Shown here one piece after another: positions 22,168-55,814 of a stretch of 64,000 bases of DNA; the stretch's first letter is position 1, and every line of letters begins with the position of its first letter. Under the pieces are notes generated by a model that saw only the letters and a list, made by a program, of their open reading frames with translations, did not search any database and was not told where the DNA came from. The stretch spans positions 4,081 to 68,080 of the forward strand of contig CANNGF010000004.1 of the NCBI GenBank assembly GCA_947504155.1, written 5' to 3'. Origin of the DNA: an uncultured Erythrobacter sp. (lineage in GTDB: Bacteria; Pseudomonadota; Alphaproteobacteria; Sphingomonadales; Sphingomonadaceae). A program made the position numbers and the translations under genes.

Positions 22168-23055
22168 ATGACTTTCGATGAAATGCGCGAGCGTATTGCG
22201 ACTGGGCAGGGCTTCATTGCGGCGCTCGACCAGTCGGGTGGCTCAACTCCCAAAGCGCTTCATGGCTATGGAGTCGAAGAAGGCGAATGGAGCGGCGATG
22301 AACAGATGTTCGGCCTTATCCACGAAATGCGTCAGCGCATTATCGAAAGCCCCTGTTTCGGTAATGGTAAGGTTATCGGCGCGATCCTGTTCGAAAAAAC
22401 CATGGACGGAGAGAGCGGCGGAAAAAGCGTTCCCGCGCGCCTCAAGGAACGCGGCATCGTCCCCTTTCTGAAAGTCGACAAGGGCCTTGAAGACGAGCGC
22501 GACGGCGCGCAGTTGATGAAGGAAAACCCCGAGCTCGAAAGTCTTTGCCGACGTGCGAAGGAACTGGGCGTCTTCGGAACCAAGATGCGCAGCGTAATCA
22601 AGTCTGCCAATCCGGTCGGCATCAAGGAAGCCGTGCGCCAGCAATTTGCGGAAGGTGCACGTATCCTCGCCTGCGGCCTCGTCCCCATGCTTGAACCCGA
22701 ATACGACATCAACGCGGCCGATCGCGCTGAAGGCGAGAAGATCATGCTCGATGCCATCGTTGAAGGGCTCGATGCGTTGCCCGATGATCAGCAGGTCATG
22801 CTCAAGCTATCCATTCCCAAAGACGCCGGGCTTTATGCCGATCTGGTGAAGCACCCCAAGGTGCTGCGCATGGTCGCTCTATCGGGCGGCTATTCGACAG
22901 AGGATGCCTGCGCGGAACTGGCCAAGAACCCGGGCATGATCGCAAGCTTCAGCCGCGGCCTCTTGCAGGATCTCCGCAAGCAACAGAGCGATGCGGAATT
23001 CGATGGGACGCTGTCGGGCGCGATCGACCAGATCCACGCGGCCAGCGTAACCTGA
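22168..23055 (+). CDS. fba: Class I fructose-bisphosphate aldolase
   Basis: ALDQSGGSTPKAL, KVDKGL, GTKMRS and ALSGGY motifs. Confidence 0.93.
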   Translation: MTFDEMRERIATGQGFIAALDQSGGSTPKALHGYGVEEGEWSGDEQMFGLIHEMRQRIIESPCFGNGKVIGAILFEKTMDGESGGKSVPARLKERGIVPFLKVDKGLEDERDGAQLMKENPELESLCRRAKELGVFGTKMRSVIKSANPVGIKEAVRQQFAEGARILACGLVPMLEPEYDINAADRAEGEKIMLDAIVEGLDALPDDQQVMLKLSIPKDAGLYADLVKHPKVLRMVALSGGYSTEDACAELAKNPGMIASFSRGLLQDLRKQQSDAEFDGTLSGAIDQIHAASVT

Positions 23056-38185: not shown

Positions 38186-39549
38186 TGGCGCAAACCAAGC
38201 CGAGATTGCTTATCGTTGAGGATGATGAAGGGCTGCAGGCACAACTGAAATGGGCCTACGATGACTATGATGTCATTATTGCCGGTAACCGAGATCAGGC
38301 GCTTGCAGCCATTCGCAGTCAAGAGCCTGCTGTAGTAACTCTCGACCTGGGTTTACCGCCTGACCCTGACGGAACGAGTGAAGGTTTCGCCGTGCTGGAT
38401 GCGATAATGGCGATGAAGCCAGATACTAAAGTGGTCGTTGCCTCGGGCCATGGCGCACGCGAAAGCGCTTTGCAGGCCATTGAACGGGGCGCTTACGACT
38501 TCTATCAAAAACCGGTCGATATCGAGAAACTCGGGCTTATCGTCGGTCGCGCTTTCAAACTTAGCCAGATCGAAATTGAGAACCGCCGACTTTCCGCCAA
38601 GATTGGCGAAGACAAAACGGTTCTGGGTAGGATGATTACTACCGCACCTGAAATGGCTAAGGTTGCGCGAACGATCGAACGAGTGGCGCCTACCAACATT
38701 TCGGTTATGCTTCTCGGTGCGAGCGGAACTGGAAAAGAACTGCTGGCTAAGGGCGTACATGAGGCAAGCGACCGTAGAAAGGGCGCCTTCGTAGCAATCA
38801 ATTGTGCCGCAATTCCAGAAAGCCTTCTTGAAAGCGAACTTTTCGGACATGAAAAGGGAGCATTTACTGGAGCGGTAAAAACCACCGAAGGTAAGATTGA
38901 GATGGCTGACGGTGGCACTCTCTTTCTCGATGAAGTAGGTGATATCCCGCTCGCGCTCCAGGTCAAATTACTGCGCTTTCTGCAGGAGCGGGTTATTGAA
39001 CGGCTAGGGGGGCGTAAACAAATCGCGGTTGATACCCGCATCGTATGCGCGACTCATCAAAACCTCGAAGAAATGATTGGCGACAATACGTTTCGCGAGG
39101 ATCTGTTCTACCGATTGGCCGAGGTGGTAATCAGGGTGCCTGCATTAGCCGAACGCCCGGGTGACAGCGTTCTCTTAGCCAAACATTTCCTGACTAGATT
39201 TGCCGGGGAAATGAATCCTCAGGTCAAAGGCTTTGCGCCCGATGCGCTAGAAGCGATCGATGGCTGGAAGTGGCCTGGTAATGTTCGCGAGTTAGAGAAC
39301 AGGGTCAAACGCGCGGTTATTATGGCCGATGGCAAGCTCGTCACTGCGGAGGATCTCGATCTTGAGCAACGCTGCGAGGGAGGTGAGCAACCGCTAAACC
39401 TCAAGCAAGCGCGAGAGGCTGCGGATCGACGAATGATCCGGCAGGCGATGGCTCGTAGTCAAGGTAACATCTCGATGACGGCAAAGCTGTTGGGCATCAG
39501 TCGCCCGACCCTTTACGACCTGCTGAAGCAGTACGATTTACAGGACTGA
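38185..39549 (+). CDS. prsR: Sigma54-dependent response regulator PrsR
   Basis: REC domain TLDLGLPP, GASGTGKE, GAFTGA and a Fis-type HTH. Confidence 0.9.
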   Translation: MAQTKPRLLIVEDDEGLQAQLKWAYDDYDVIIAGNRDQALAAIRSQEPAVVTLDLGLPPDPDGTSEGFAVLDAIMAMKPDTKVVVASGHGARESALQAIERGAYDFYQKPVDIEKLGLIVGRAFKLSQIEIENRRLSAKIGEDKTVLGRMITTAPEMAKVARTIERVAPTNISVMLLGASGTGKELLAKGVHEASDRRKGAFVAINCAAIPESLLESELFGHEKGAFTGAVKTTEGKIEMADGGTLFLDEVGDIPLALQVKLLRFLQERVIERLGGRKQIAVDTRIVCATHQNLEEMIGDNTFREDLFYRLAEVVIRVPALAERPGDSVLLAKHFLTRFAGEMNPQVKGFAPDALEAIDGWKWPGNVRELENRVKRAVIMADGKLVTAEDLDLEQRCEGGEQPLNLKQAREAADRRMIRQAMARSQGNISMTAKLLGISRPTLYDLLKQYDLQD

Positions 39550-46355: not shown

Positions 46356-46370
46356 GAACATAAAGGGAAC
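46356..46370 (+). promoter_or_regulatory. Alphaproteobacterial LexA (SOS) box
   Basis: GAAC-ATAAAGG-GAAC, 17 bp upstream of imuA. Confidence 0.88.
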
Positions 46371-46387
46371 AGACGATTCGGTTCCAT

Positions 46388-47275
46388 ATGATCCAACTAG
46401 CTCTCTCCTCCTTGCCGACGACCGCCTCTGAAGATGTCGCCACACTACCTGAGCGTCATAGTGAGCGCTGGAGGCATGGGTTGGCTGGCCTACATGGAAA
46501 AGCTCTGCACAGCGAAGTGTTCGCCTCATCGAGAGAAGCGGCAGGTGCTGGTGCAGTGCTGGCGCTGGCACTTGACGATTGGCGTAACGCGTCGCCGAAA
46601 GAAGGCGGGGAGATGAGCGATCAACGCAGCATACTCTGGGTGCAGACGCGTGAGGCGGCGCGCTTGGGAGGTAAACCGTATCGTGCCGGGCTACCGCAGG
46701 ATTTGCAGTCGCGCGTGATCCATGTGCTGGCCCATAAGGCGGAAGATGCGCTTTTTGCGATGGAGGAGGGGTTGCGCTGTCGTGAGCTATCCTTCGTTAT
46801 CGGGGAAATTGCCGGCAATCCAAAGGCGTTGGACTTCACAGCTTCGCGTCGGCTGACGCTGACTGCGCAGAAACACGAGGTACCTTTGTTCCTGTTGCGG
46901 GTCGATGCGGCGCGTGACCTGTCTTCGGCCCGGATGCGCTGGCAAGTGACTTCGGCTCCATCCACCGCACCCGAATGGAACGCGCAAGCACCAGGCAATC
47001 CGTCGTGGCGGGGTGAGCTCTTCCGTGCCCGCTCGCATCCACCGGGCGAATGGGTTTTCGAAGAGTTCGGGAAGGGGCTGGAGGCTCGTCGTGAAGCGCC
47101 GCAGGTCTCTTCGCCACCCACCGGCAAGCCATTCTCTATCGTTCAGCATATCGGGCCACGTTTCGGGCTCGCCGAAAGAGCGTTTTTCAAGCCGTTGAGC
47201 ACAGCAATCGAAGATAGATCCGTTGTACTTTCGGAACAGTCTCGTTTCCGACAAGTCCAAGGTAAGCGGCGCTAG
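46388..47275 (+). CDS. imuA: ImuA (RecA-like) mutagenesis protein
   Basis: LHSEVF, ALFAMEEGLRC, LDFTASRRL and SSARMRW motifs; LexA box; precedes imuB. Confidence 0.85.
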   Translation: MIQLALSSLPTTASEDVATLPERHSERWRHGLAGLHGKALHSEVFASSREAAGAGAVLALALDDWRNASPKEGGEMSDQRSILWVQTREAARLGGKPYRAGLPQDLQSRVIHVLAHKAEDALFAMEEGLRCRELSFVIGEIAGNPKALDFTASRRLTLTAQKHEVPLFLLRVDAARDLSSARMRWQVTSAPSTAPEWNAQAPGNPSWRGELFRARSHPPGEWVFEEFGKGLEARREAPQVSSPPTGKPFSIVQHIGPRFGLAERAFFKPLSTAIEDRSVVLSEQSRFRQVQGKRR

Positions 47276-47289
47276 TTTGTTGGTCTGCC

Positions 47290-48840
47290 ATGGATCAACC
47301 GCGCCGTATCCTTTCTATCTGGCTCCCGTCCATGGCCATGGACCGCTGGCGTATGGGCGCGGCGGAGAGAGGGGAGCTAGATGACAAGCCGTTTGTCCTG
47401 ACCGCTGATACAGCGCATGGGCCGCGGATCGAAGCGACCAACCGCACAAGCGCTGCTGCCGGGGCCAGGGCAGGGATGATGTTGGCTGATGCACATTCGC
47501 TTTGCCCTGAAATCACTACGGCACTGTCCGACCCTGAAGGCGATCTCGTTTTCTTGGAAAAGCTTGCTGCTTGGGCACGACGCTGGGGACCTTGGTCGGC
47601 GATGGATGTACCGGATGGGCTTTTGGTGGATGTAACCGCAGTGTCGCATCTCTTCGGAGGCGAGGAAAAGCTGCTTGCCGATGTAACTGCGGTGTTTGCA
47701 CAGCGCGACATCGCTATGCGTTGCGCGATAGCTCCGACTGCCGGGGCAGCTTGGGCACTGGCCCATTATGCTGCATCGGGTGCGATCCTGCGCAAAGATG
47801 AGGAAATGGAAACACGGCTGGGCGAACTTCCCGTGGCGGCACTAAGGCTCGATCAGGATGTCGTCACTGTTCTTCGCCGGCTAGGGCTCAAGAAACTGAG
47901 CGAGCTTTCGGCGGTCGATCGCGATGGAATCAATAGACGGTTTCGCAACCGGAACTCTCCCTCTGCCAACCCGCTAATCCGCCTGGACCAGCTGCTCGGC
48001 CGGATACCGGAACCGCTGCTACCAGTCATTCCCCAACAAATTCCGATGGTACAGCGCCGCCTGCTGGAGCCGATCCGACACCGCCACTTGCTCGATCAGG
48101 TGGTGAACGATCTGGCGGATGATATGGTGCGCGAACTGGAGGGCAAGGGGCAGGGCGCCCGCAGGCTGGAACTCGGCTTGTGGCGCGTCGATGGTGAAGT
48201 GGTTGTGCGGCATATCGAACTTGCTGCAGCAACCCGAGAGGCCGCGCATTTTGTACGCCTTTTTGTCAGCAAGCTAGATGATGTAGATGCAGGGTTCGGG
48301 ATCGAAATGCTGCGTTTGCGTGCCAGTTGGTCAGAAGCCTTGGCATTGGACCAAAGCGATATCGAGACGGCTTCGAAAAACCATGGCATCGCGCTTTCCA
48401 CCTTGGTCGATCGGCTCACCGTGCGCCTTGGGCCCCGTGCCGTCACACGGCCCGTGCCTTCAGCCAGCCACATCCCCGAGCGTGCGCAGCGGGGCCAACC
48501 GCCTTTAGAGCCCGAACCGGCCAACCAAGGTCAGTTTGTCTTCCATCAACGCCCTTTGAAACTGCTCGACAAGGCCGAGCAGATTGCTGTGCTCTACGCC
48601 ACTCCCGATGGATATCCTAAGCGTTTCCGCTGGCGCGACGAGGTACACGATATCAAACGTGTCGAAGGCCCCGAACGTATCGCCCCTGAATGGTGGCGTG
48701 AGCGCGGTGGTACCCGACTACGCGATTATTACCGGATTGAGGATCAGAGAGGGAGGCGCTACTGGATCTATCGGCTCGGCATTATCGGAGATGGACGAGG
48801 TGGTAAGCCAAAGTGGTACTTGCAGGGATTGTTCGCCTGA
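47290..48840 (+). CDS. imuB: ImuB, inactive Y-family polymerase
   Basis: WARRWGP, DGLLVDVT, IAPTAGAAWALA, GPERIAPEWW and RDYYRIED motifs. Confidence 0.92.
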   Translation: MDQPRRILSIWLPSMAMDRWRMGAAERGELDDKPFVLTADTAHGPRIEATNRTSAAAGARAGMMLADAHSLCPEITTALSDPEGDLVFLEKLAAWARRWGPWSAMDVPDGLLVDVTAVSHLFGGEEKLLADVTAVFAQRDIAMRCAIAPTAGAAWALAHYAASGAILRKDEEMETRLGELPVAALRLDQDVVTVLRRLGLKKLSELSAVDRDGINRRFRNRNSPSANPLIRLDQLLGRIPEPLLPVIPQQIPMVQRRLLEPIRHRHLLDQVVNDLADDMVRELEGKGQGARRLELGLWRVDGEVVVRHIELAAATREAAHFVRLFVSKLDDVDAGFGIEMLRLRASWSEALALDQSDIETASKNHGIALSTLVDRLTVRLGPRAVTRPVPSASHIPERAQRGQPPLEPEPANQGQFVFHQRPLKLLDKAEQIAVLYATPDGYPKRFRWRDEVHDIKRVEGPERIAPEWWRERGGTRLRDYYRIEDQRGRRYWIYRLGIIGDGRGGKPKWYLQGLFA

Positions 48841-48871
48841 TAAACAATGACGAGGGGGCTCCTCGCAAAAC

Positions 48872-49270
48872 TCAACTGTCGCGCGACACAAACGACCCAC
48901 GGCGGCCCCGCTTGGCGACGGGAATATTATCGAACTTTGCCACCGGGCCGGATTCGACTTCTACCACATCACAGGTCTCTTCAACGACCGATGCCGGTAT
49001 CGGGCGTTCGAAAAGAAATCCGCAACTGCTATCGCGCGTCCATACGATCTTGCCGAAGAATTCGTGCTCACCCCACGACAACAAGCCTGAAACGCCCTGT
49101 TGCGGCGGATTGGCCGTCTCGAACCGCGCACCGGTTTGTGAAAGATCCGACAGGCGTCCGTCCCGGTTGCCGCCAGGCATTTTGAGCCGACTGGTACAGT
49201 CGACAGAATAGCGCTGTACGGTCCTGCGCTCCTCGGATTTCTGCCCAGATTTTTTCTGGAAAAGTGCCAC
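48872..49270 (-). CDS. PilZ domain protein
   Basis: RxxxR (RTVQR) and DxSxxG (DLSQTG) c-di-GMP motifs. Confidence 0.8.
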   Translation of the reverse strand: MALFQKKSGQKSEERRTVQRYSVDCTSRLKMPGGNRDGRLSDLSQTGARFETANPPQQGVSGLLSWGEHEFFGKIVWTRDSSCGFLFERPIPASVVEETCDVVEVESGPVAKFDNIPVAKRGRRGSFVSRDS

Positions 49271-49552
49271 TCGGCAAGTCCCTCTTGTTAATCGATTTTT
49301 ACACGAACCTGGTTAATTTTAGGTTATCATGCTTGGCGCTCCAATAATGATAACTCCAGAATATCGTCATCCGTTTCCCGGTTGAGTGAATAAGGCCGCA
49401 GCGGATCCCCTTCGTATTCGAGGAGTGAGGCCGCGGACCTTCGGCTACACCTCGCTCCATACAACTCCGATGGGCGTAGCGAGCATGAACCTCACATGCC
49501 CACTTCTCGCAAACAAACCAATTACCTTTTGTTATTGGCGAATCCTGGTTCG

Positions 49553-49567
49553 GAACATATATGGAAC
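49553..49567 (+). promoter_or_regulatory. Second alphaproteobacterial LexA (SOS) box
   Basis: GAAC-ATATATG-GAAC immediately before the radical SAM start codon. Confidence 0.88.
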
Positions 49568-49569
49568 AT

Positions 49570-50811
49570 ATGGCTCTGCAAACCGTCCTTCAAAAACTCG
49601 AGATCCTCGCCGACGCAGCGAAGTACGATGCTTCCTGCGCGTCCTCCGGTACGGCGAAGAAGAACAGTCTGGGCGGCAAGGGCATTGGATCGACTGAAGG
49701 GATGGGAATCTGCCATGCCTATGCGCCAGATGGACGCTGCATCTCGCTGCTCAAGATTTTACTGACCAACCACTGTGTGTTTGATTGTCATTATTGTGTG
49801 AATCGTAAGAGCTCGAACGTGGCTCGCGCGCGTTTCACACCGCAAGAAGTGGTCGATCTCACGCTCGCTTTCTACCGGCGCAATTATATCGAAGGGCTGT
49901 TCCTTTCCTCGGGTATTGTGAAGAATTCCAACCACACGATGGAGCAGATCGTGGAGGTTGCCCGGATTTTGCGCGAAGAACATGATTTTCGCGGCTACAT
50001 TCACTTGAAGACCATCCCGGAAGCAGATGCAGAAATCGTCCATCAGGCGGGGCTTTATGCTGATCGGGTCTCCATCAATGTCGAACTGCCGACTGACAGC
50101 GGCCTAACACGTCTCGCGCCGGACAAGGATGCGCGCCAGATCGAAGGCGCGATGGGCAAGGTGAAAGAGGATCTGGTGGAGGCCAAGGATGCCCGCAAGC
50201 GGTTCAGGCATGCCCCCCGCTTTGCGCCCGCCGGCCAGTCTACGCAAATGATCGTGGGGGCCGATGCAGCCACTGACGCAGATATTGTGGGCAAGGCAAG
50301 CCGGCTTTACGATAATTTCCGCCTGCGCCGTGTCTATTACAGCGCGTTCTCGCCAATCCCAGATGCGAGCGCGGTGCTGCCGCTGAAGCGTCCACCTTTG
50401 ATCCGCGAGCACAGGCTTTACCAATCTGACTGGTTGATGCGCTTTTACGGTTACAAGCCTTCGGACGTCATGCATGCGACAGAAGCAGACGGGAATTTGC
50501 CGCTTGATATCGATCCCAAACTTGCTTGGGCTTTGAAGTTTCGTGAAGCCTTTCCAGTTGATGTGAACCGCGCGACCAAGGAGCAATTGCTGCGTGTGCC
50601 GGGCTTAGGCGTGAAGGCGGTTGGCAAGATCTTGGCAAGTCGCCGTCATCGCGGCCTACGGTTGGACGATGTGTCGCTGCTTACCCAGTCCATCACCAAG
50701 GTTCGACCTTTCATCTGTACTATCGACTGGCGGCCGATCACTCTCACCGATCGCGCCGACCTGCGCAGCCTGCTCGCCCCGAAAACCGAGCAGCTGGAGC
50801 TGTTCGTGTGA
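49570..50811 (+). CDS. Putative DNA modification/repair radical SAM protein (TIGR03916-like)
   Basis: DAAKYDASC; CxxxCxxC (CVFDCHYC); YIEGLFLSSG; C-terminal HhH LLRVPGLG. The track start is 49561. Confidence 0.9.
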   Translation: MALQTVLQKLEILADAAKYDASCASSGTAKKNSLGGKGIGSTEGMGICHAYAPDGRCISLLKILLTNHCVFDCHYCVNRKSSNVARARFTPQEVVDLTLAFYRRNYIEGLFLSSGIVKNSNHTMEQIVEVARILREEHDFRGYIHLKTIPEADAEIVHQAGLYADRVSINVELPTDSGLTRLAPDKDARQIEGAMGKVKEDLVEAKDARKRFRHAPRFAPAGQSTQMIVGADAATDADIVGKASRLYDNFRLRRVYYSAFSPIPDASAVLPLKRPPLIREHRLYQSDWLMRFYGYKPSDVMHATEADGNLPLDIDPKLAWALKFREAFPVDVNRATKEQLLRVPGLGVKAVGKILASRRHRGLRLDDVSLLTQSITKVRPFICTIDWRPITLTDRADLRSLLAPKTEQLELFV

Positions 50812-52262
50812 CTGCGCTTCAACACGTCAAACTCGGCACCTACTACGTTGTCCAACTGCCTGATGCGGATGATTTCGATTTCTGGCGCGAGTGGGCGCGG
50901 GCCTTCGTCCAATGCGATGTGCCACCGGACCGTATCGCATGGGTCGAACCCGGCGGTAGCGGGGACCTCTTCGCCCATGGAGAACGGCGTATGCCTGTCC
51001 CTCCTAAGGGAGCGAGGCCGGTACAGGCCAACCGACGCTTTGTACAACTTGCGCGTAATGCCATCCTTCATTCGGACCCTGAACGGTTTGCGCTGCTCTA
51101 CCGCCTGCTCTGGAGGCTACAAGGCAAGCCGCGGATGATGGAAGACAAGGCTGATCCAGATGTCAGAAAGCTGGAGGAACTCGACAAGAACGTGAGGCGT
51201 GACAGCCACAAGATGCATGCTTTTGTGCGCTTTCGGCTGGTCGAAAACCCCGATCATTCCGGTGGCGAAGATGGCGAGGGAGGTGAGCATTACGTTGCCT
51301 GGTTCGAGCCGGAGCATCATATTCTCCGGGCCAATGCAGGGTTCTTCATGCGGCGTTTTTCGAACATGCGCTGGTCGATCCTGACGCCGCGCGGCTCGCT
51401 TCACTGGGATGGCGAAACTATGGCGGAGGGGCCGCCAGCTGAACGTCACGACGCGCCTCAGGGCGATCCGATGGAGGATCTCTGGCGCACCTACTACGCT
51501 TCGATCTTCAATCCGGCGCGGCTGAAGATTGGCGCCATGCTCAAGGAGATGCCGAAAAAATACTGGAAAAACATGCCCGAAGCCACGCTCATTCCCGAGT
51601 TAGTGGCGGGCGCGCAGAAGCGGGAAAGTGCTATGGTCGAAAAGGGAACGCTGGAATTCGAAGAGCGGCCCGATACACTGGCAGCGATCGACAAGGCAAT
51701 TCACGCCTGCCGTAAATGCCCGATCGGCAGCCTCGATAATCAAGCTGTTATGGGCGAGGGACCGCAGGATGCTGCGCTGATGATCGTGGGCGAACAGCCG
51801 GGCGATCAGGAGGATTTGGCTGGCCGTCCCTTTGTCGGACCGGCCGGAAAACTGCTCGAACACCATCTTGATCGGGCCGGTATCGACCGGAAAGCGGCCT
51901 ATGTCACGAATACCGTGAAGCATTTCAAATATGTCCAGCGCGGCAAGCGGCGGCTGCACCAAAATCCCGGTGCAAAGGAAATCGATACCTGCCGCTGGTG
52001 GATCGAGAGCGAGCGCGCGATCGTCCAGCCCAAGCTGATACTCGCCATGGGGGCGAGCGCGGCGCGCGGCATGCTGGGAAAGACAGTGAGCATCTCCAAG
52101 GCTCGGGGCACGCCCATTCCGCTGGAAGACGGCAGCGAGCTGTGGATCACCTCCCACCCGTCCTATCTCCTTCGCCTTGATGGTCCCGCGCGCGAGGAGC
52201 AGGAGCGGCTGTTCGATGCCGATCTCGCCGCAGTGAAGGAGCGGCTCGAGGAGTTGGCGTAA
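50808..52262 (+). CDS. DUF4130 (TIGR03915-like) - UdgX family uracil-DNA binding protein fusion
   Basis: HKMHAFVRF, WFEPEH, W..YY.SIFNPAR (DUF4130); CRKC, GEQPGD, PFVGPAG, TN.VKH and R-loop KRRLH (UdgX); GTGA overlap with the upstream gene. Confidence 0.88.
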   Translation: MTALQHVKLGTYYVVQLPDADDFDFWREWARAFVQCDVPPDRIAWVEPGGSGDLFAHGERRMPVPPKGARPVQANRRFVQLARNAILHSDPERFALLYRLLWRLQGKPRMMEDKADPDVRKLEELDKNVRRDSHKMHAFVRFRLVENPDHSGGEDGEGGEHYVAWFEPEHHILRANAGFFMRRFSNMRWSILTPRGSLHWDGETMAEGPPAERHDAPQGDPMEDLWRTYYASIFNPARLKIGAMLKEMPKKYWKNMPEATLIPELVAGAQKRESAMVEKGTLEFEERPDTLAAIDKAIHACRKCPIGSLDNQAVMGEGPQDAALMIVGEQPGDQEDLAGRPFVGPAGKLLEHHLDRAGIDRKAAYVTNTVKHFKYVQRGKRRLHQNPGAKEIDTCRWWIESERAIVQPKLILAMGASAARGMLGKTVSISKARGTPIPLEDGSELWITSHPSYLLRLDGPAREEQERLFDADLAAVKERLEELA

Positions 52263-52283
52263 TGACTTTTCAAAGCTGGTGTC

Positions 52284-55200
52284 ATGCCCGAGAATGACCA
52301 GCAGATACCCAAGCGCACTATCGACCTTGATCCCGATGAAATAGACGCACCAGCGCGCGCGCCGTTCGTCGAACTCGGTCTCGTCTCGTGTTTCAGCTTC
52401 CTGCGCGGAGCGAGCGATGCGGTAGACCTGGTAATGGAGGCGCGCAGGCTGGGGTATGACGCGATCGGGATCGCCGATGCCAACAGCATGGCGGGCGTGG
52501 TGCGGGTGCACACAGAAGCGAAAACGCTCAAGCTCAAGCCTTGTATCGGTTGCCGGATCGAAACGGTCGAGGGGCTGGCTTTCCTCGCCTATCCCAAAAA
52601 CCGTGAGGCCTATGGTCGTTTGTGCCGCCTGATTTCCGCGGGCCGGATGCGCACGCTCGACAACGAGTGGCAGGAGAAGGGCGTGTGCGATATCTCGTTA
52701 GCGATGCTGGCCGGGCACAGCAAAGACGTGCAACTGATTCTAATTCCGCCACCCGATCTGGCATGCGAGTTCACCGTTCCAGCCTGGGCCACGCCAGACG
52801 GCACAGCGGAAAGCGAACAGAGAGAAATGGCGGTCACGGCACCCTTTGTGGAAATCGTGCCGCATCTTGTCGCCGGACTACCGGCGCTACGCCATATCGC
52901 TGCGACTTTCTTTTACGCTGGGAACGACCTCGCCCGGATTGCCCGGCTCGACGCGCTGGCCAAGGATCATGATCTTTCCATCCTCGCCACCAATGATGTG
53001 CAGTATCACGCGCCGGAGCGCCGGCCGCTACAGGACGTAATGACCGCGATCCGCCATAAGACTACTGTGGCGCGGGCGGGCTATCTGCTTCAGAGTAATG
53101 CCGAGCGATATCTGAAGCCGCCAGAGACCATGTGCCATCTGTTCGAACCATGGCCCCATGCGATCGAAGCCGCGCGCGCCGTGGCCGACGCCTGTGATTT
53201 CAGCCTCGATCAGCTGCAATATGAGTATCCCGAAGAACTGTATCCCGGCGGCGCCGAACCGCAGGATTATCTCGAAAAAGAGACCTGGAAGGGAGCTGGC
53301 TGGCGCTATCCCGACGGGGTGCCGGATGGAGTGACCGAAACGCTGCGCAAAGAACTGGCGCTGATCGGCAAGATGGAGCTTGCGCGCTATTTCCTGACCA
53401 TCAAGGACATTGTCGATTTCGCGCGCAACAAGGTCGATCCGCCGATCCTGTGCCAGGGGCGCGGCAGTGCGGCCAACTCTGCGGTATGCTATTGTCTCGG
53501 CATCACCAATGTCGATCCTTCGAAGCACCAGCTTTTGTTCGACCGCTTCATCTCCGAGGATCGCAAGGAGCCGCCCGATATCGATGTCGATTTCGAGCAT
53601 GAGCGGCGCGAGGAGGTGATCCAGTACCTCTATCGCAAATATGGCCGTCACCGGGCAGGGCTGTGCGCCACAGTGATTCACTATCGTCCGCGCATGGCCA
53701 TCCGCGAAGTGGGTAAGGCCATGGGATTGAGCGAAGACGTCACCTCAGCGCTCGCCAAGACGGTATGGGGCGGGTGGGGCCGCGAGATTAGCGAGAAACA
53801 TGCCGCGGAAACTGGCATGAATGTGAAAGATCCGCATCTGAGGCGGGTTCTTAAGCTGACCGAGCAAATGATTGGAATGCCGAGGCATCTGTCACAACAC
53901 GTAGGCGGTTTCATTTTAACCGAAAATGCGCTGACCGAAACGGTACCGGTGGGCAACGGTGCCATGCCCGACCGCAGTTTCATCGAATGGGACAAGGACG
54001 ATATCGAAGCACTGGGCATCCTCAAGGTCGATGTTCTGGCGCTGGGAATGCTGAGTTGCATCAGGAAATGCCTCGACCTGATTGACGATCATCACAGCCG
54101 GACTCTCACTCTGGCAACCGTCCCGCGTGAAGATCCCGACACTTACGCCATGCTGCGCAAGGGGGATTCGCTCGGCGTATTCCAGGTCGAAAGCCGCGCG
54201 CAGATGAACATGCTGCCAAGGTTGCGTCCGCGCGAATTCTACGATCTCGTGATTCAGGTCGCTATCGTTCGGCCCGGCCCGATCCAGGGCGACATGGTCC
54301 ATCCCTATCTTAAACGAAGGCGCGGGGCCGAGAAGGTGGAGATACCCGCACCAAGTCCGCATCACGGCCCACCTGACGAATTGTCGAGCATTCTCGAACG
54401 TACGTTGGGCGTACCGATCTTCCAGGAGCAGGCCATGAAGATTGCGCTCGATGCGGCCAAGTTCTCGTCCAAGGAAGCGAACCGGTTGCGCAAGGCCATG
54501 GCGACCTTCCGCAGCCGCGGCATGGTGGACGAATTGCAGGACATGATGGTCGAACGCATGGTCGACCGCGGCTACGACCGCGAGTTCGCGCAGCGCTGTT
54601 TCAACCAGATCCGCGGCTTTGGTGAATATGGCTTTCCCGAAAGCCACGCGGCAAGCTTTGCGCACCTCGTCTATGTGTCGAGCTGGCTCAAATGCCATTT
54701 CCCTGCCGCCTTTGGCTGTGCGCTGCTCAACTCGCAACCGATGGGCTTTTACGCCCCGGCGCAGATCGTGCGCGATGCGGCGGAACACGGGGTGCGGGTG
54801 CTGCCTGCGGATGTGAACCATTCGCAATGGGATTGTACTCTGGAAAGGGTGGAGTCTTCCGCCCCAAAGGAGCAAGGCCGCTTCGACAATGGCTTCGCCT
54901 TGCGGCTTGGCTTGCGACAGATCGACGGTCTGCCCGAAGCGGTCGCGGCACAGCTGGTATCCGAGCGTGAGGAGAGCGGCATCTACGAGGACGTACGGGC
55001 CTTGCGCGATCGGGCGCGGATCGGGCCATCGCACGTCGAACGGCTCGCCAGTGCCGACGGCTTCGGGTCGATGAACCTGTCGCGCAGGCAGGCGTTGTGG
55101 GATGCAAGAAGCCTCATCGGTGGGCCGGACCTGCCGCTCTTCGCTGCTGCTGCCGCGCGTGATGAAGGTGCCGAAAAGCATCCCACGCGCTTGCCACAGA

Positions 55201-55814
55201 TGCCGCTGTCCGAGGAAGTAGTCGCCGATTACCAGACCACGCGTCTCAGTCTCAAGGCACACCCGATGGCTTTCTTACGTGCCAGCCTGGCTGATCGCGG
55301 GTTCGTGCGTGCCTGCGACCTTCGTGAGAAGAAATTTCGCAGCATGGTCCATGTTGCAGGCGTAGTGCTGATCCGCCAGCGACCGGGCAGTGCGAAAGGC
55401 GTATGCTTCATCACGCTGGAGGACGAGACGGGCGTCATCAACCTTGTGATCTGGCCGGACCTGAAAGAAAGGCAGCGGCGCGTGGTGATGGGGGCAAGGC
55501 TGATGGAAGTGAGAGGCCGCGTGGAGTATGACGACGAAGTAATCCATGTGATCGCGCAGCACATGACCGATGCGACAACCGATCTTCACAAGCTTTCCGA
55601 TGATATGCTCAACGCCCCGCTTGCGCGTGCCGATCACGTGGCATCGCCCCTGCCGGACAAGTTCAATCCACGGGACAATCTACGGGAAGGCAATGAGGAT
55701 CCCTATCAGCCTGTGGAACCATGGCAGGAGCCTCCGCCAGGCAACCGCGAATGCGGATGGCAGGGACACCCGCGTGATGTGCGCATCATTCCGAAATCGC
55801 GCGACTTTCATTAA
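52284..55814 (+). CDS. dnaE2: Error-prone DNA polymerase DnaE2 (ImuC)
   Basis: PHP domain SCFSFLRGAS, GRGSAANS, PPDIDVDF, GFPESHA and an OB fold. Confidence 0.95.
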   Translation: MPENDQQIPKRTIDLDPDEIDAPARAPFVELGLVSCFSFLRGASDAVDLVMEARRLGYDAIGIADANSMAGVVRVHTEAKTLKLKPCIGCRIETVEGLAFLAYPKNREAYGRLCRLISAGRMRTLDNEWQEKGVCDISLAMLAGHSKDVQLILIPPPDLACEFTVPAWATPDGTAESEQREMAVTAPFVEIVPHLVAGLPALRHIAATFFYAGNDLARIARLDALAKDHDLSILATNDVQYHAPERRPLQDVMTAIRHKTTVARAGYLLQSNAERYLKPPETMCHLFEPWPHAIEAARAVADACDFSLDQLQYEYPEELYPGGAEPQDYLEKETWKGAGWRYPDGVPDGVTETLRKELALIGKMELARYFLTIKDIVDFARNKVDPPILCQGRGSAANSAVCYCLGITNVDPSKHQLLFDRFISEDRKEPPDIDVDFEHERREEVIQYLYRKYGRHRAGLCATVIHYRPRMAIREVGKAMGLSEDVTSALAKTVWGGWGREISEKHAAETGMNVKDPHLRRVLKLTEQMIGMPRHLSQHVGGFILTENALTETVPVGNGAMPDRSFIEWDKDDIEALGILKVDVLALGMLSCIRKCLDLIDDHHSRTLTLATVPREDPDTYAMLRKGDSLGVFQVESRAQMNMLPRLRPREFYDLVIQVAIVRPGPIQGDMVHPYLKRRRGAEKVEIPAPSPHHGPPDELSSILERTLGVPIFQEQAMKIALDAAKFSSKEANRLRKAMATFRSRGMVDELQDMMVERMVDRGYDREFAQRCFNQIRGFGEYGFPESHAASFAHLVYVSSWLKCHFPAAFGCALLNSQPMGFYAPAQIVRDAAEHGVRVLPADVNHSQWDCTLERVESSAPKEQGRFDNGFALRLGLRQIDGLPEAVAAQLVSEREESGIYEDVRALRDRARIGPSHVERLASADGFGSMNLSRRQALWDARSLIGGPDLPLFAAAAARDEGAEKHPTRLPQMPLSEEVVADYQTTRLSLKAHPMAFLRASLADRGFVRACDLREKKFRSMVHVAGVVLIRQRPGSAKGVCFITLEDETGVINLVIWPDLKERQRRVVMGARLMEVRGRVEYDDEVIHVIAQHMTDATTDLHKLSDDMLNAPLARADHVASPLPDKFNPRDNLREGNEDPYQPVEPWQEPPPGNRECGWQGHPRDVRIIPKSRDFH

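Follow-up and report, generated by a model that had tools for sequence, protein, structure and literature searches.

dnaE2 apparently shares the LexA switch of a radical SAM/UdgX operon lying between imuB and dnaE2 in an Erythrobacteraceae clade

The window, that is the whole 64,000-nucleotide stretch of uncultured Erythrobacter sp. DNA analysed here, comes from a Qipengyuania-type marine bacterium and contains an SOS mutagenesis locus that we interpret as two LexA-repressed units: imuA-imuB behind an operator at 46356, and a radical SAM gene, a DUF4130::UdgX fusion and dnaE2 behind an operator at 49553. By this reading, to which as a whole we assign a probability of roughly 0.7, dnaE2 apparently uses the LexA switch of the radical-SAM/UdgX pair. 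The radical SAM operon would have come to sit between imuB and dnaE2 in the common ancestor of one Erythrobacteraceae clade, after which dnaE2 would have become tightly coupled to UdgX, its damage induction now depending on the radical SAM promoter. Neither the parts nor their control by LexA is new; what is new is their placement and wiring, a lineage-specific variant.

Gene content and layout

Profile matches place all five genes where the original prediction had put them. The first, imuA (46388-47275, plus strand, 295 aa), matches NF033429 ImuA with E 5.5e-7, under the family cut-off; it adjoins imuB on the 5' side and shares 35-51% identity with the gene that opens contiguous imuA-imuB-dnaE2 cassettes. 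The product of imuB (47290-48840, plus strand, 516 aa) is Y-family-like and carries the Pfam domains IMS, IMS_C and DUF6504 (ImuB-C), and its N-terminus, ILSIWLPSMAMDRW, shows no DxD motif of active Y-family polymerases when read by eye. The second unit comprises a TIGR03916 radical SAM/HhH gene (49570-50811, plus strand, 413 aa; 570.7 bits, cut-off 343.5), the DUF4130::UdgX fusion (50808-52262, plus strand, 484 aa; TIGR03915 230.5 bits and TIGR03914 319.2 bits, both above their cut-offs), and dnaE2 (52284-55814, plus strand, 1176 aa; NF004225 error-prone polymerase, 1369.8 bits, cut-off 939). The proposed GTGA overlap between the first two of these genes (50808-50811) and the 21-nt gap before dnaE2 (52263-52283) are both exact. 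The start of the radical SAM gene had to be moved from 49561 to the ATG at 49570 (MALQTV...), the sole ATG present in most relatives.

A minus-strand PilZ-domain gene (48872-49270; Pfam PilZ, E 1.2e-8), convergent with imuB and found in 11 of 20 loci of the genus, occupies the 720 nt that separate imuB from the radical SAM gene. In relatives this spacer measures between 46 and 1901 nt and its contents differ, the PilZ gene being variable cargo within it.

LexA operators and the radical SAM promoter

Both boxes that had been claimed are exact GAAC-N7-GAAC matches on the plus strand. Operator 1, GAACATAAAGGGAAC, occupies 46356-46370, 17 nt 5' of imuA; operator 2, GAACATATATGGAAC, occupies 49553-49567. 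The number of exact matches in the window (five observed, 1.96 expected) is weak evidence taken alone, and the third match, at 51177, falls within the DUF4130 coding region. The genome as a whole has 134 exact matches, 42 of them within the intergenic sequence that makes up about 9% of its DNA, and the box is found upstream of recA, uvrA, uvrD, lexA and dinG-like, rmuC, mmcB-like and SplB-like genes of the same genome. We regard GAAC-N7-GAAC, as it is distributed here, as a genuine LexA operator of the source genome.

All 18 split loci of the genus keep the exact imuA box. Conservation of the radical SAM box reaches much further: all 21 loci of the genus have it, as do 78 of 79 named loci and about 116 of 120 alphaproteobacterial loci, and it is also seen in 18 or 19 of the 20 class loci without any nearby imu gene. 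The distance from box end to ATG is exactly 2 nt in 73 of 94 alphaproteobacterial loci. The idea that the second operator belongs to a rebuilt mutasome cassette was not upheld; it is native to the radical-SAM/DUF4130(-UdgX) operon, a member of the SOS regulon across Alphaproteobacteria.

Such control has been published. PMC8565304, which cites da Rocha 2008 and Erill 2016, reports a LexA-controlled two-gene operon of COG4277 (radical SAM/HhH) and COG1573 (family-4-type UDG) in Caulobacter crescentus, Verrucomicrobia and Bacteroidetes, so that SOS control of the radical-SAM/UDG operon is on record for Alphaproteobacteria and for those two phyla. That operon resembles the present one in its families (TIGR03916 plus TIGR03915/TIGR03914), in gene order and in the GAAC-N7-GAAC box at the gene start, and differs from it in that here, in one Erythrobacteraceae clade only, dnaE2 is added as a third, 3' gene and imuAB lies directly upstream.

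By inspection of the sequence, a promoter is predicted at 49535-49563 (plus strand), with a -35 element TTGGCG (49535-49540), a 17-nt spacer and a -10 element TATATG (49558-49563). A consensus promoter scan did not call this -35/-10 pair; TTGGCG/TAGGCA is kept at equal spacing in relatives of the genus. Because operator 2 extends over the -10 element and stops 2 nt short of the ATG, the radical SAM protein is probably translated from a leaderless mRNA.

Coupling of dnaE2 to the radical SAM/UdgX unit

The original prediction also held that dnaE2 is transcribed with the radical SAM/UdgX genes rather than with imuAB. This wiring is supported by comparison: the separation by the PilZ gene, the box-bearing promoter of the radical SAM gene, the tight gaps, and a dnaE2 lacking a box of its own. 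Of 31 loci, 20 have a UdgX-dnaE2 interval of -1 to 10 nt, often 1 nt. In the window, the corresponding gap contains neither a LexA-like box nor a plus-strand terminator, and a scan found no plus-strand terminator-like site between the genes of the unit. Since the two modules, two head-to-head lineages excepted, lie apart elsewhere and are nested, tightly spaced and furnished with a boxless dnaE2 in one clade, we infer co-transcription of dnaE2 with the radical SAM/UdgX genes, an inference that is well supported.

The three proteins and the SOS control are shared with the imuA-imuB-dnaE2 cassettes of C. crescentus and P. putida (PMC6511836, PMC1839093). The separate transcription of dnaE2 and imuAB suggested here has its counterpart in the split imuA'-imuB / dnaE2 arrangement of Mycobacterium tuberculosis (PMC6511836, PMC1839093), where, however, dnaE2 is a distant locus; here about 3.4 kb separates it from imuB, and a different SOS operon appears to have captured it. 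Radical SAM or UdgX partners go unmentioned in a survey of DnaE2 association modules from 2026 (PMC12926913).

Distribution and history

The layout is not strain-specific: 18 of the 20 species sampled in the genus have it, as do one more from the phylum sample (G771) and at least eight other genera, among them Porphyrobacter, Erythrobacter, Alteraurantiacibacter and Croceicoccus plus four more. Placement of the operon between imuB and dnaE2 is confined to one Erythrobacteraceae clade, which includes Qipengyuania. All 34 DnaE2 proteins of the split type group together in one clade (SH-aLRT 100), and the phylogeny points to a single origin of the split arrangement followed by long conservation. 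Two Qipengyuania species (G005 and G011) hold the pair alone at this locus under a LexA box, with a contiguous imuA-imuB-dnaE2 elsewhere, and Q. vulgaris is a third species with the pair alone. Species without imuAB and dnaE2 at the locus could represent the ancestral state or secondary losses; support in the locus tree is weak.

The presumed reliance of dnaE2 on the radical SAM promoter would keep the order fixed. This dependence alone would suffice as a regulatory lock-in, and it would let the imuB-radical SAM spacer accept cargo such as the PilZ gene. Lock-in accounts for the persistence of the order, not for its origin.

The radical SAM and DUF4130::UdgX proteins

The radical SAM gene is the most conserved of the locus (89-97% identity within the genus). 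Its CxxxCxxC motif is encoded at 49774-49797, and six cysteines, three of them beyond this motif, are invariant in 160 of 160 homologues. The C-terminus carries QLELF (50791-50805, plus strand), a pentapeptide of the β-clamp-binding type. The pattern Q[LIVM]x[LIVM]F occurs within the last 14 residues of 100 of 120 alphaproteobacterial homologues, homologues of other Pseudomonadota have the variants QASLF, QMALW and QLPLF, and just 3 of 2762 crude ORFs of the genome, the radical SAM gene included, contain it. The protein probably contains two Fe-S clusters, uses its HhH part to bind DNA and ends in a β-clamp-binding-type peptide, the second cluster and the clamp peptide being read from sequence patterns only. 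Foldseek returned only generic radical SAM matches (BioB, LipA, MiaB). The protein belongs to TIGR03916 and is not a spore photoproduct lyase; the genome has a separate SplB-like gene at another place.

The UdgX part of the fusion has M. smegmatis UdgX 6AIL as its best PDB match (E 2.7e-44). The KRRLH loop that had been pointed out lies at 51945-51959 and aligns with KRRIH of that protein; the other motifs are GEQPG (51789-51803) and HPS (52155-52163). GEQPG, the histidine of the KRR(I/L)H loop and HPS all align with M. smegmatis UdgX (6AIL, 6AJO and others), and the motifs, crosslinking loop included, are intact. The present protein differs from M. smegmatis UdgX in being the C-terminal domain of a DUF4130 fusion with a radical SAM partner.

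DUF4130 was described by Aravind et al. in 2013 as a predicted mutagenesis-related protein that is associated, in the vicinity of SOS polymerases, with radical SAM enzymes and UDGs, within an SOS gene-neighbourhood network of SRAP and ImuB-C (PMC3765255). The link of DUF4130, radical SAM protein and UDG to mutagenesis is therefore not new, although that paper calls the radical SAM partner 'SplB-like' and here it is TIGR03916. A complex of DUF4130 and the radical SAM protein has been predicted by AlphaFold 3 in a preprint (10.64898/2026.08.19.745780).

Role of the unit in SOS mutagenesis

UdgX, the radical SAM enzyme and DnaE2 might act successively on one lesion: UdgX would excise uracil in damaged or single-stranded DNA and remain covalently bound, the radical SAM enzyme would process or remove the adduct, and ImuB/DnaE2 would then synthesise across, the operon fusion mirroring selection for co-expression of partners. 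We consider this unlikely. It would fit the intact crosslinking loop, the abutment of dnaE2 to UdgX in many genera since the single origin, and the clamp-binding-type peptide of the radical SAM protein, a clamp-binding motif having been described in ImuB (PMC12926913), though a pattern search found none in the window's ImuB. Adjacency has also arisen independently in two further alphaproteobacterial lineages, family f218 and Henriciella, where the pair and imuA-imuB-dnaE2 lie head-to-head with shared LexA boxes between them (about 3 of 92 loci, about 0.5 expected; Poisson p ~0.014). Further, dnaE2 is present in 19 of 24 genomes with the radical SAM gene against 154 of 377 (odds ratio 5.5, p = 4e-4). 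Both genome size and relatedness confound this statistic: the five exceptions are all genomes of 1.7-2.5 Mb. The recurrent adjacency and this enrichment hint at more than neutral wiring.

Several observations speak against successive action. The core pair is the radical SAM protein and DUF4130, the UdgX domain being absent in about 12 of the loci with enough sequence to judge, and those five exceptions have the pair without any dnaE2. None of 20 non-alphaproteobacterial loci has the pair beside imuABC, nor do about 89 of the 92 alphaproteobacterial loci that belong to other lineages than the clade, and the solitary pairs of G005 and G011 coexist with a contiguous cassette. Resolution of the adduct by the radical SAM enzyme is, moreover, a purely hypothetical step. 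Under the preferred reading of two LexA-repressed units, the radical SAM protein and DUF4130::UdgX most likely would form a clamp-recruited lesion-processing complex working at stalled or gapped sites shared with ImuB/DnaE2; its SOS function would run parallel to the mutasome and would not be an obligatory step of it.

It is more improbable still that the operon was inserted with no regulatory effect, dnaE2 being served by an unrecognised promoter of its own or by read-through from imuAB: five relatives have a spacer of merely 46-79 nt with all five genes co-oriented, an arrangement that would permit read-through from the imuA promoter, a terminator scan found no strong terminator after imuB, and ten UdgX-dnaE2 gaps of 21-145 nt (a further one, in locus L091, measures 293 nt) could hide a promoter of another type, but the overlaps or 1-10 nt gaps of most loci leave no space for one, and in the window and many relatives imuB and the radical SAM gene are kept apart by a gene on the opposite strand or by other cargo. 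A LexA-like box (at most one mismatch) precedes dnaE2 in L091 alone among the 31 loci scanned, and L091 retains the radical-SAM/UdgX/dnaE2 order though imuAB is absent upstream.

Gene content of the locus

Five genes follow one another on the plus strand, namely imuA (46388-47275), imuB (47290-48840), a radical SAM gene of the TIGR03916 (COG4277) family, a gene for a DUF4130::UdgX fusion (50808-52262) and dnaE2 (52284-55814), and the ORF listing together with family scans places all of them where the original prediction had put them. The matches score 570.7 bits against a cut-off of 343.5 for the radical SAM protein, 230.5 against 112.25 (TIGR03915) and 319.2 against 189.95 (TIGR03914) for the DUF4130 and UdgX parts of the fusion, and 1369.8 against 939 (NF004225) for DnaE2. 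ImuB carries Pfam IMS, IMS_C and DUF6504 (ImuB-C), with the catalytic DxD absent as judged by eye. ImuA matches its family NF033429 weakly (E = 5.5e-7, 29.7 bits against a cut-off of 150); its gene lies directly before imuB, and the product is 35-51% identical to that of the first gene of contiguous cassettes, that is, those with imuA, imuB and dnaE2 uninterrupted.

The GTGA overlap and the 21-nt gap before dnaE2 are both exact. The 720 nt that separate imuB from the radical SAM gene contain a minus-strand gene for a PilZ-domain protein (48872-49270), and relatives point to ATG 49570 as the start of the radical SAM gene instead of position 49561. The ImuA-ImuB-DnaE2 cassette is not contiguous here: the PilZ gene, the radical SAM gene, the fusion gene and a second operator all lie between imuB and dnaE2, an arrangement referred to below as the split layout. 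The radical SAM gene is the best conserved of the locus, with 89-97% identity within the genus versus 61-78% for ImuA.

LexA operators and the putative promoter of the radical SAM unit

The two exact GAAC-N7-GAAC boxes reported at the locus were both recovered, at 46356-46370, 17 nt before the imuA start codon, and at 49553-49567, 2 nt before that of the radical SAM gene. Exact copies of the motif number 134 in the 3.2 Mb assembly (the count leaves out contig C5, 5730 bases, all N), and 42 of them are intergenic though intergenic DNA makes up only ~9%. These intergenic boxes precede recA, uvrA, uvrD, a DinG-like helicase gene, rmuC, an mmcB-like gene, an SplB-like radical SAM gene and lexA itself, which is canonical in this genome and preceded by the box GTTCCACATTCGTTC. 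Judged by motif and genomic context, the boxes of the locus are alphaproteobacterial LexA operators, direct repeats of the form GTTC-N7-GTTC or GAAC-N7-GAAC. A third exact box at 51177-51191, recurring in several relatives from the genus, was rejected as an operator; it lies within the DUF4130 coding region, where it encodes ELDKN, and likely reflects coding constraint.

The second operator is conserved with the radical SAM gene. It was found in 21 of 21 loci from the genus, even where the end of imuB is no more than 46-79 nt away, and in two loci without any imu gene. In an even sample of the class (401 genomes), TIGR03916 is present in 24; in the 20 loci fetched, the radical SAM gene is always followed by DUF4130, with or without UdgX, and an exact box lies directly upstream of it in 18 or 19, with imuA, imuB and dnaE2 found within 7-9 kb of the gene in none. 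Upstream sequence was available for 79 of 80 named loci, and 78 of these carry the box. Because the box persists across genus, class and named loci, including those without imu genes, the second operator is, by its conservation, that of the radical SAM operon and not of the mutasome. This agrees with published work: PMC8565304 reports a COG4277-COG1573 operon under SOS control in Alphaproteobacteria, Verrucomicrobia and Bacteroidetes, DUF4130 was linked in 2013 to radical SAM enzymes, UDGs and a mutagenesis network (PMC3765255), and in Acinetobacter the pair is a member of the DdaA damage regulon (PMC12392091). The parts of the locus and their LexA control are already known.

The geometry of this operator is unusually rigid: of 94 loci, 73 have a box ending exactly 2 nt short of the start codon, and in 82 the distance is 1-4 nt. 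A putative plus-strand promoter combines a -35 element TTGGCG (49535-49540), a 17-nt spacer and a -10 element TATATG (49558-49563), the latter lying inside the operator; a generic promoter scan did not call this pair. As the expected start site falls on the A of the ATG and the -10 element lies inside the operator, we infer a leaderless promoter that LexA would occlude, which makes the unit a clear candidate case of a leaderless mRNA under LexA control.

Probable coupling of dnaE2 to the radical SAM/UdgX unit

The original prediction that dnaE2 is transcribed with the radical SAM and UdgX genes is supported by several results taken together. The UdgX stop codon and the dnaE2 start codon are separated by -1 to 10 nt in 20 of 31 loci, and a LexA-like box (at most one mismatch) occurs in this gap in only one of the 31, L091 from the MAG Erythrobacter sp. 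ANT-B3C2, where the gap measures 293 nt. No plus-strand terminator-like site was found between the genes in the window. The same L091 locus has the radical SAM, UdgX and dnaE2 genes with no imuAB in the 10 kb upstream. Lastly, the spacer between imuB and the radical SAM gene (48841-49552 in the window) ranges from 46 to 1901 nt among relatives with changing ORF content and seems to attract small insertions, which fits an internal promoter that leaves the spacer free to vary. Co-transcription of dnaE2 with the unit is therefore probable.

Distribution and origin of the split layout

A synteny survey found the layout across the clade, hence not confined to one strain. It is present in 18 of 20 sampled species of the genus, which named relatives show to be Qipengyuania, and in one more from a phylum-wide sample (L177), in four further genera of the same GTDB family, and in Porphyrobacter, several Erythrobacter, Alteraurantiacibacter buctensis, Croceicoccus sediminis and related MAGs. 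Among the named loci it was not found in Novosphingobium isolates, Sphingomonas, Sphingobium, Sphingopyxis, Caulobacterales, Rhizobiales or Rhodobacterales, and it was equally absent from the 20 loci sampled in the phylum's other classes.

All 34 DnaE2 proteins whose genes follow UdgX group in a single clade (SH-aLRT 100), which argues that the arrangement arose once. Three members of the genus, strain Alg239-R51 (G005; loci L050/L075), a second sampled genome (G011; L053/L076) and Q. vulgaris (L077), keep the pair and its box between the same flanking genes without imuAB or dnaE2 there, and the Q. vulgaris radical SAM protein is 95% identical to that of the window. In G005 and G011 a contiguous imuA-imuB-dnaE2 cassette with one box lies elsewhere in the genome; its DnaE2 and ImuB share 60-64% and 43-47% identity, respectively, with those of the split type. 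In the DnaE2 tree these cassettes are the sister group of all split-type sequences; in the tree of the radical SAM and UdgX locus the exceptions are nested, with weak support. Either the operon would have been inserted once between imuB and dnaE2, a few species later swapping the flanking genes, or imuAB and dnaE2 would have been added on either side of the operon. The DnaE2 tree points to a single origin of the split type and is compatible with both histories.

In the literature searched, including a 2026 survey of DnaE2 modules, we found no description of the nested, clade-wide layout. The comparisons support the transcriptional rewiring.

Features of the radical SAM and UdgX proteins

The cluster motif CxxxCxxC of the radical SAM protein corresponds to C69, C73 and C76 and is invariant in all 160 homologues, which span several classes, as are three further cysteines N-terminal to it, C23, C48 and C57 (window 49636-49740), whose conservation suggests that they are candidate ligands of an auxiliary, second Fe-S cluster. 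For the putative DNA-binding helix-hairpin-helix at the C-terminal part, Pfam HHH_3 scores 23.5 bits, under the gathering score of 27, and the AF2 model (pLDDT 72.8) is helical and confident there but poor at the cluster-binding N-terminus around C23, C48 and C57. Foldseek against the PDB returned BioB, MgmA, MiaB, LipA and HydE as top matches at TM ≤0.54; these are generic radical SAM barrels, so the search is uninformative on the chemistry. A PDB sequence search found no solved relative for the radical SAM protein or for DUF4130. An identity as spore photoproduct lyase (SplB, COG1533) was rejected, as there is no SPL family match, no PDB match and only generic folds, and the genome has a separate SplB-like gene.

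The C-terminus consists of a variable Pro/Lys-rich linker followed by QLELF (50791-50805), a tail that has the form of a β-clamp-binding motif of the QL[SD]LF type. The pattern Q[LIVM]x[LIVM]F occurs within the last 14 residues of 100 of 120 alphaproteobacterial homologues, against a background of 3 in 2762 crude ORFs of this genome, and the variants QASLF, QMALW and QLPLF appear in other Pseudomonadota. A simple pattern search found no convincing clamp motif in the window's ImuB, UdgX or DnaE2, and in the literature searched we found no radical SAM enzyme tied to such a motif. The conserved tail of clamp-docking type and the three extra invariant cysteines turn an obscure radical SAM protein into checkable questions of DnaN binding and Fe-S cluster count.

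With the one exception of L113, all loci with downstream sequence have DUF4130 next after the radical SAM gene, and a 2026 preprint using AlphaFold 3 predicts a tight complex of DUF4130 with the radical SAM protein (10.64898/2026.08.19.745780). The UdgX domain has M. smegmatis UdgX (6AIL) as its nearest solved relative (E = 2.7e-44) and contains GEQPG (motif A), KRRLH and HPS (motif B). The proposed equivalence of KRRLH with the mycobacterial KRRIH is borne out by alignment to the M. smegmatis protein, and of 102 homologues, 90 keep K[RK]RxH and 101 keep GEQPG. By score and motifs the C-terminal domain of the fusion belongs to the UdgX family; covalent trapping of uracil-DNA is putative. The searched literature yielded no link of UdgX to a radical SAM protein, to SOS or to dnaE2.

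Functional or regulatory coupling

In our reading the two modules belong to one regulon and occasionally share operators, and a single capture locked dnaE2 to the radical SAM promoter. The original prediction went further and proposed a biochemical relay in which UdgX caps a site, the radical SAM enzyme resolves the adduct and DnaE2 bypasses it, all on one lesion. We regard such a relay as unlikely. In its favor, genomes that carry the radical SAM gene have dnaE2 more often (19 of 24 versus 154 of 377, p = 4e-4, uncorrected for relatedness); the five exceptions lacking dnaE2 all have small genomes, and since genome size and relatedness confound the test, we do not trust it and discount the co-occurrence as evidence of function. 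Also in favor, the pair stands head-to-head with imuA-imuB-dnaE2 in two other alphaproteobacterial lineages, in ~3 of 92 loci against ~0.5 expected: in L186 and L187 (two genera of family f218) and in L129 (Henriciella pelagia) the modules are transcribed in opposite directions away from a short common intergenic stretch that carries one or two LexA boxes, an independent way of joining them. Against an obligatory pathway, those five of 24 genomes have the pair without dnaE2, DUF4130 stands without a UdgX domain in about 12 of the loci whose sequence reaches far enough to tell, and in G005, G011 and Q. vulgaris the pair stands at this locus without imuAB and dnaE2.

Less probable still is an extension of the relay in which a two-cluster TIGR03916 enzyme, tethered to the β-clamp, would form with DUF4130::UdgX a replisome-associated lesion machine feeding ImuB/DnaE2: UdgX, by attaching covalently to a uracil-derived site of the single-stranded template, would mark or cap it, the radical SAM enzyme would chemically process the protein-DNA or base lesion, and clamp-bound ImuB/DnaE2 would extend across the processed site. 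If true, it would be a bacterial counterpart, coupled to translesion synthesis, of abasic-site shielding by HMCES/SRAP, and the operon fusion of Erythrobacteraceae would be the footprint it left in the genome.

Should the coupling be regulatory alone, as we read it, the locus shows how an SOS operon can capture a gene of another, with gene order fixed without shared biochemistry. No chemistry is known for the pair, a widespread SOS-induced module, and no cellular role for UdgX; the main value of the locus is the handle it gives on that chemistry. The Erythrobacteraceae wiring offers a natural study system, in which the main mutagenic polymerase probably hangs on the module's promoter, and because of this dependence, polar and non-polar mutants should part regulatory from functional coupling.

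Other LexA-type boxes

Two further exact matches in the window, at 22915-22929 (GAACTGGCCAAGAAC, outside crude ORF calls) and at 38726-38740 (GAACTGGAAAAGAAC, within one), are without the GAACAT prefix of SOS boxes. Elsewhere in the same genome, the region C1:407392-408510 contains the SplB-like (COG1533-type) radical SAM gene (407401-408510), whose box GAACATATATGGAAC is identical to that at 49553 and abuts the start codon, making it a second candidate leaderless SOS gene. At C2:1030354-1032343, 20 nt separate an exact LexA-type box from a downstream Mu-like transposase/integrase-core gene, which may belong to an SOS-controlled mobile element.
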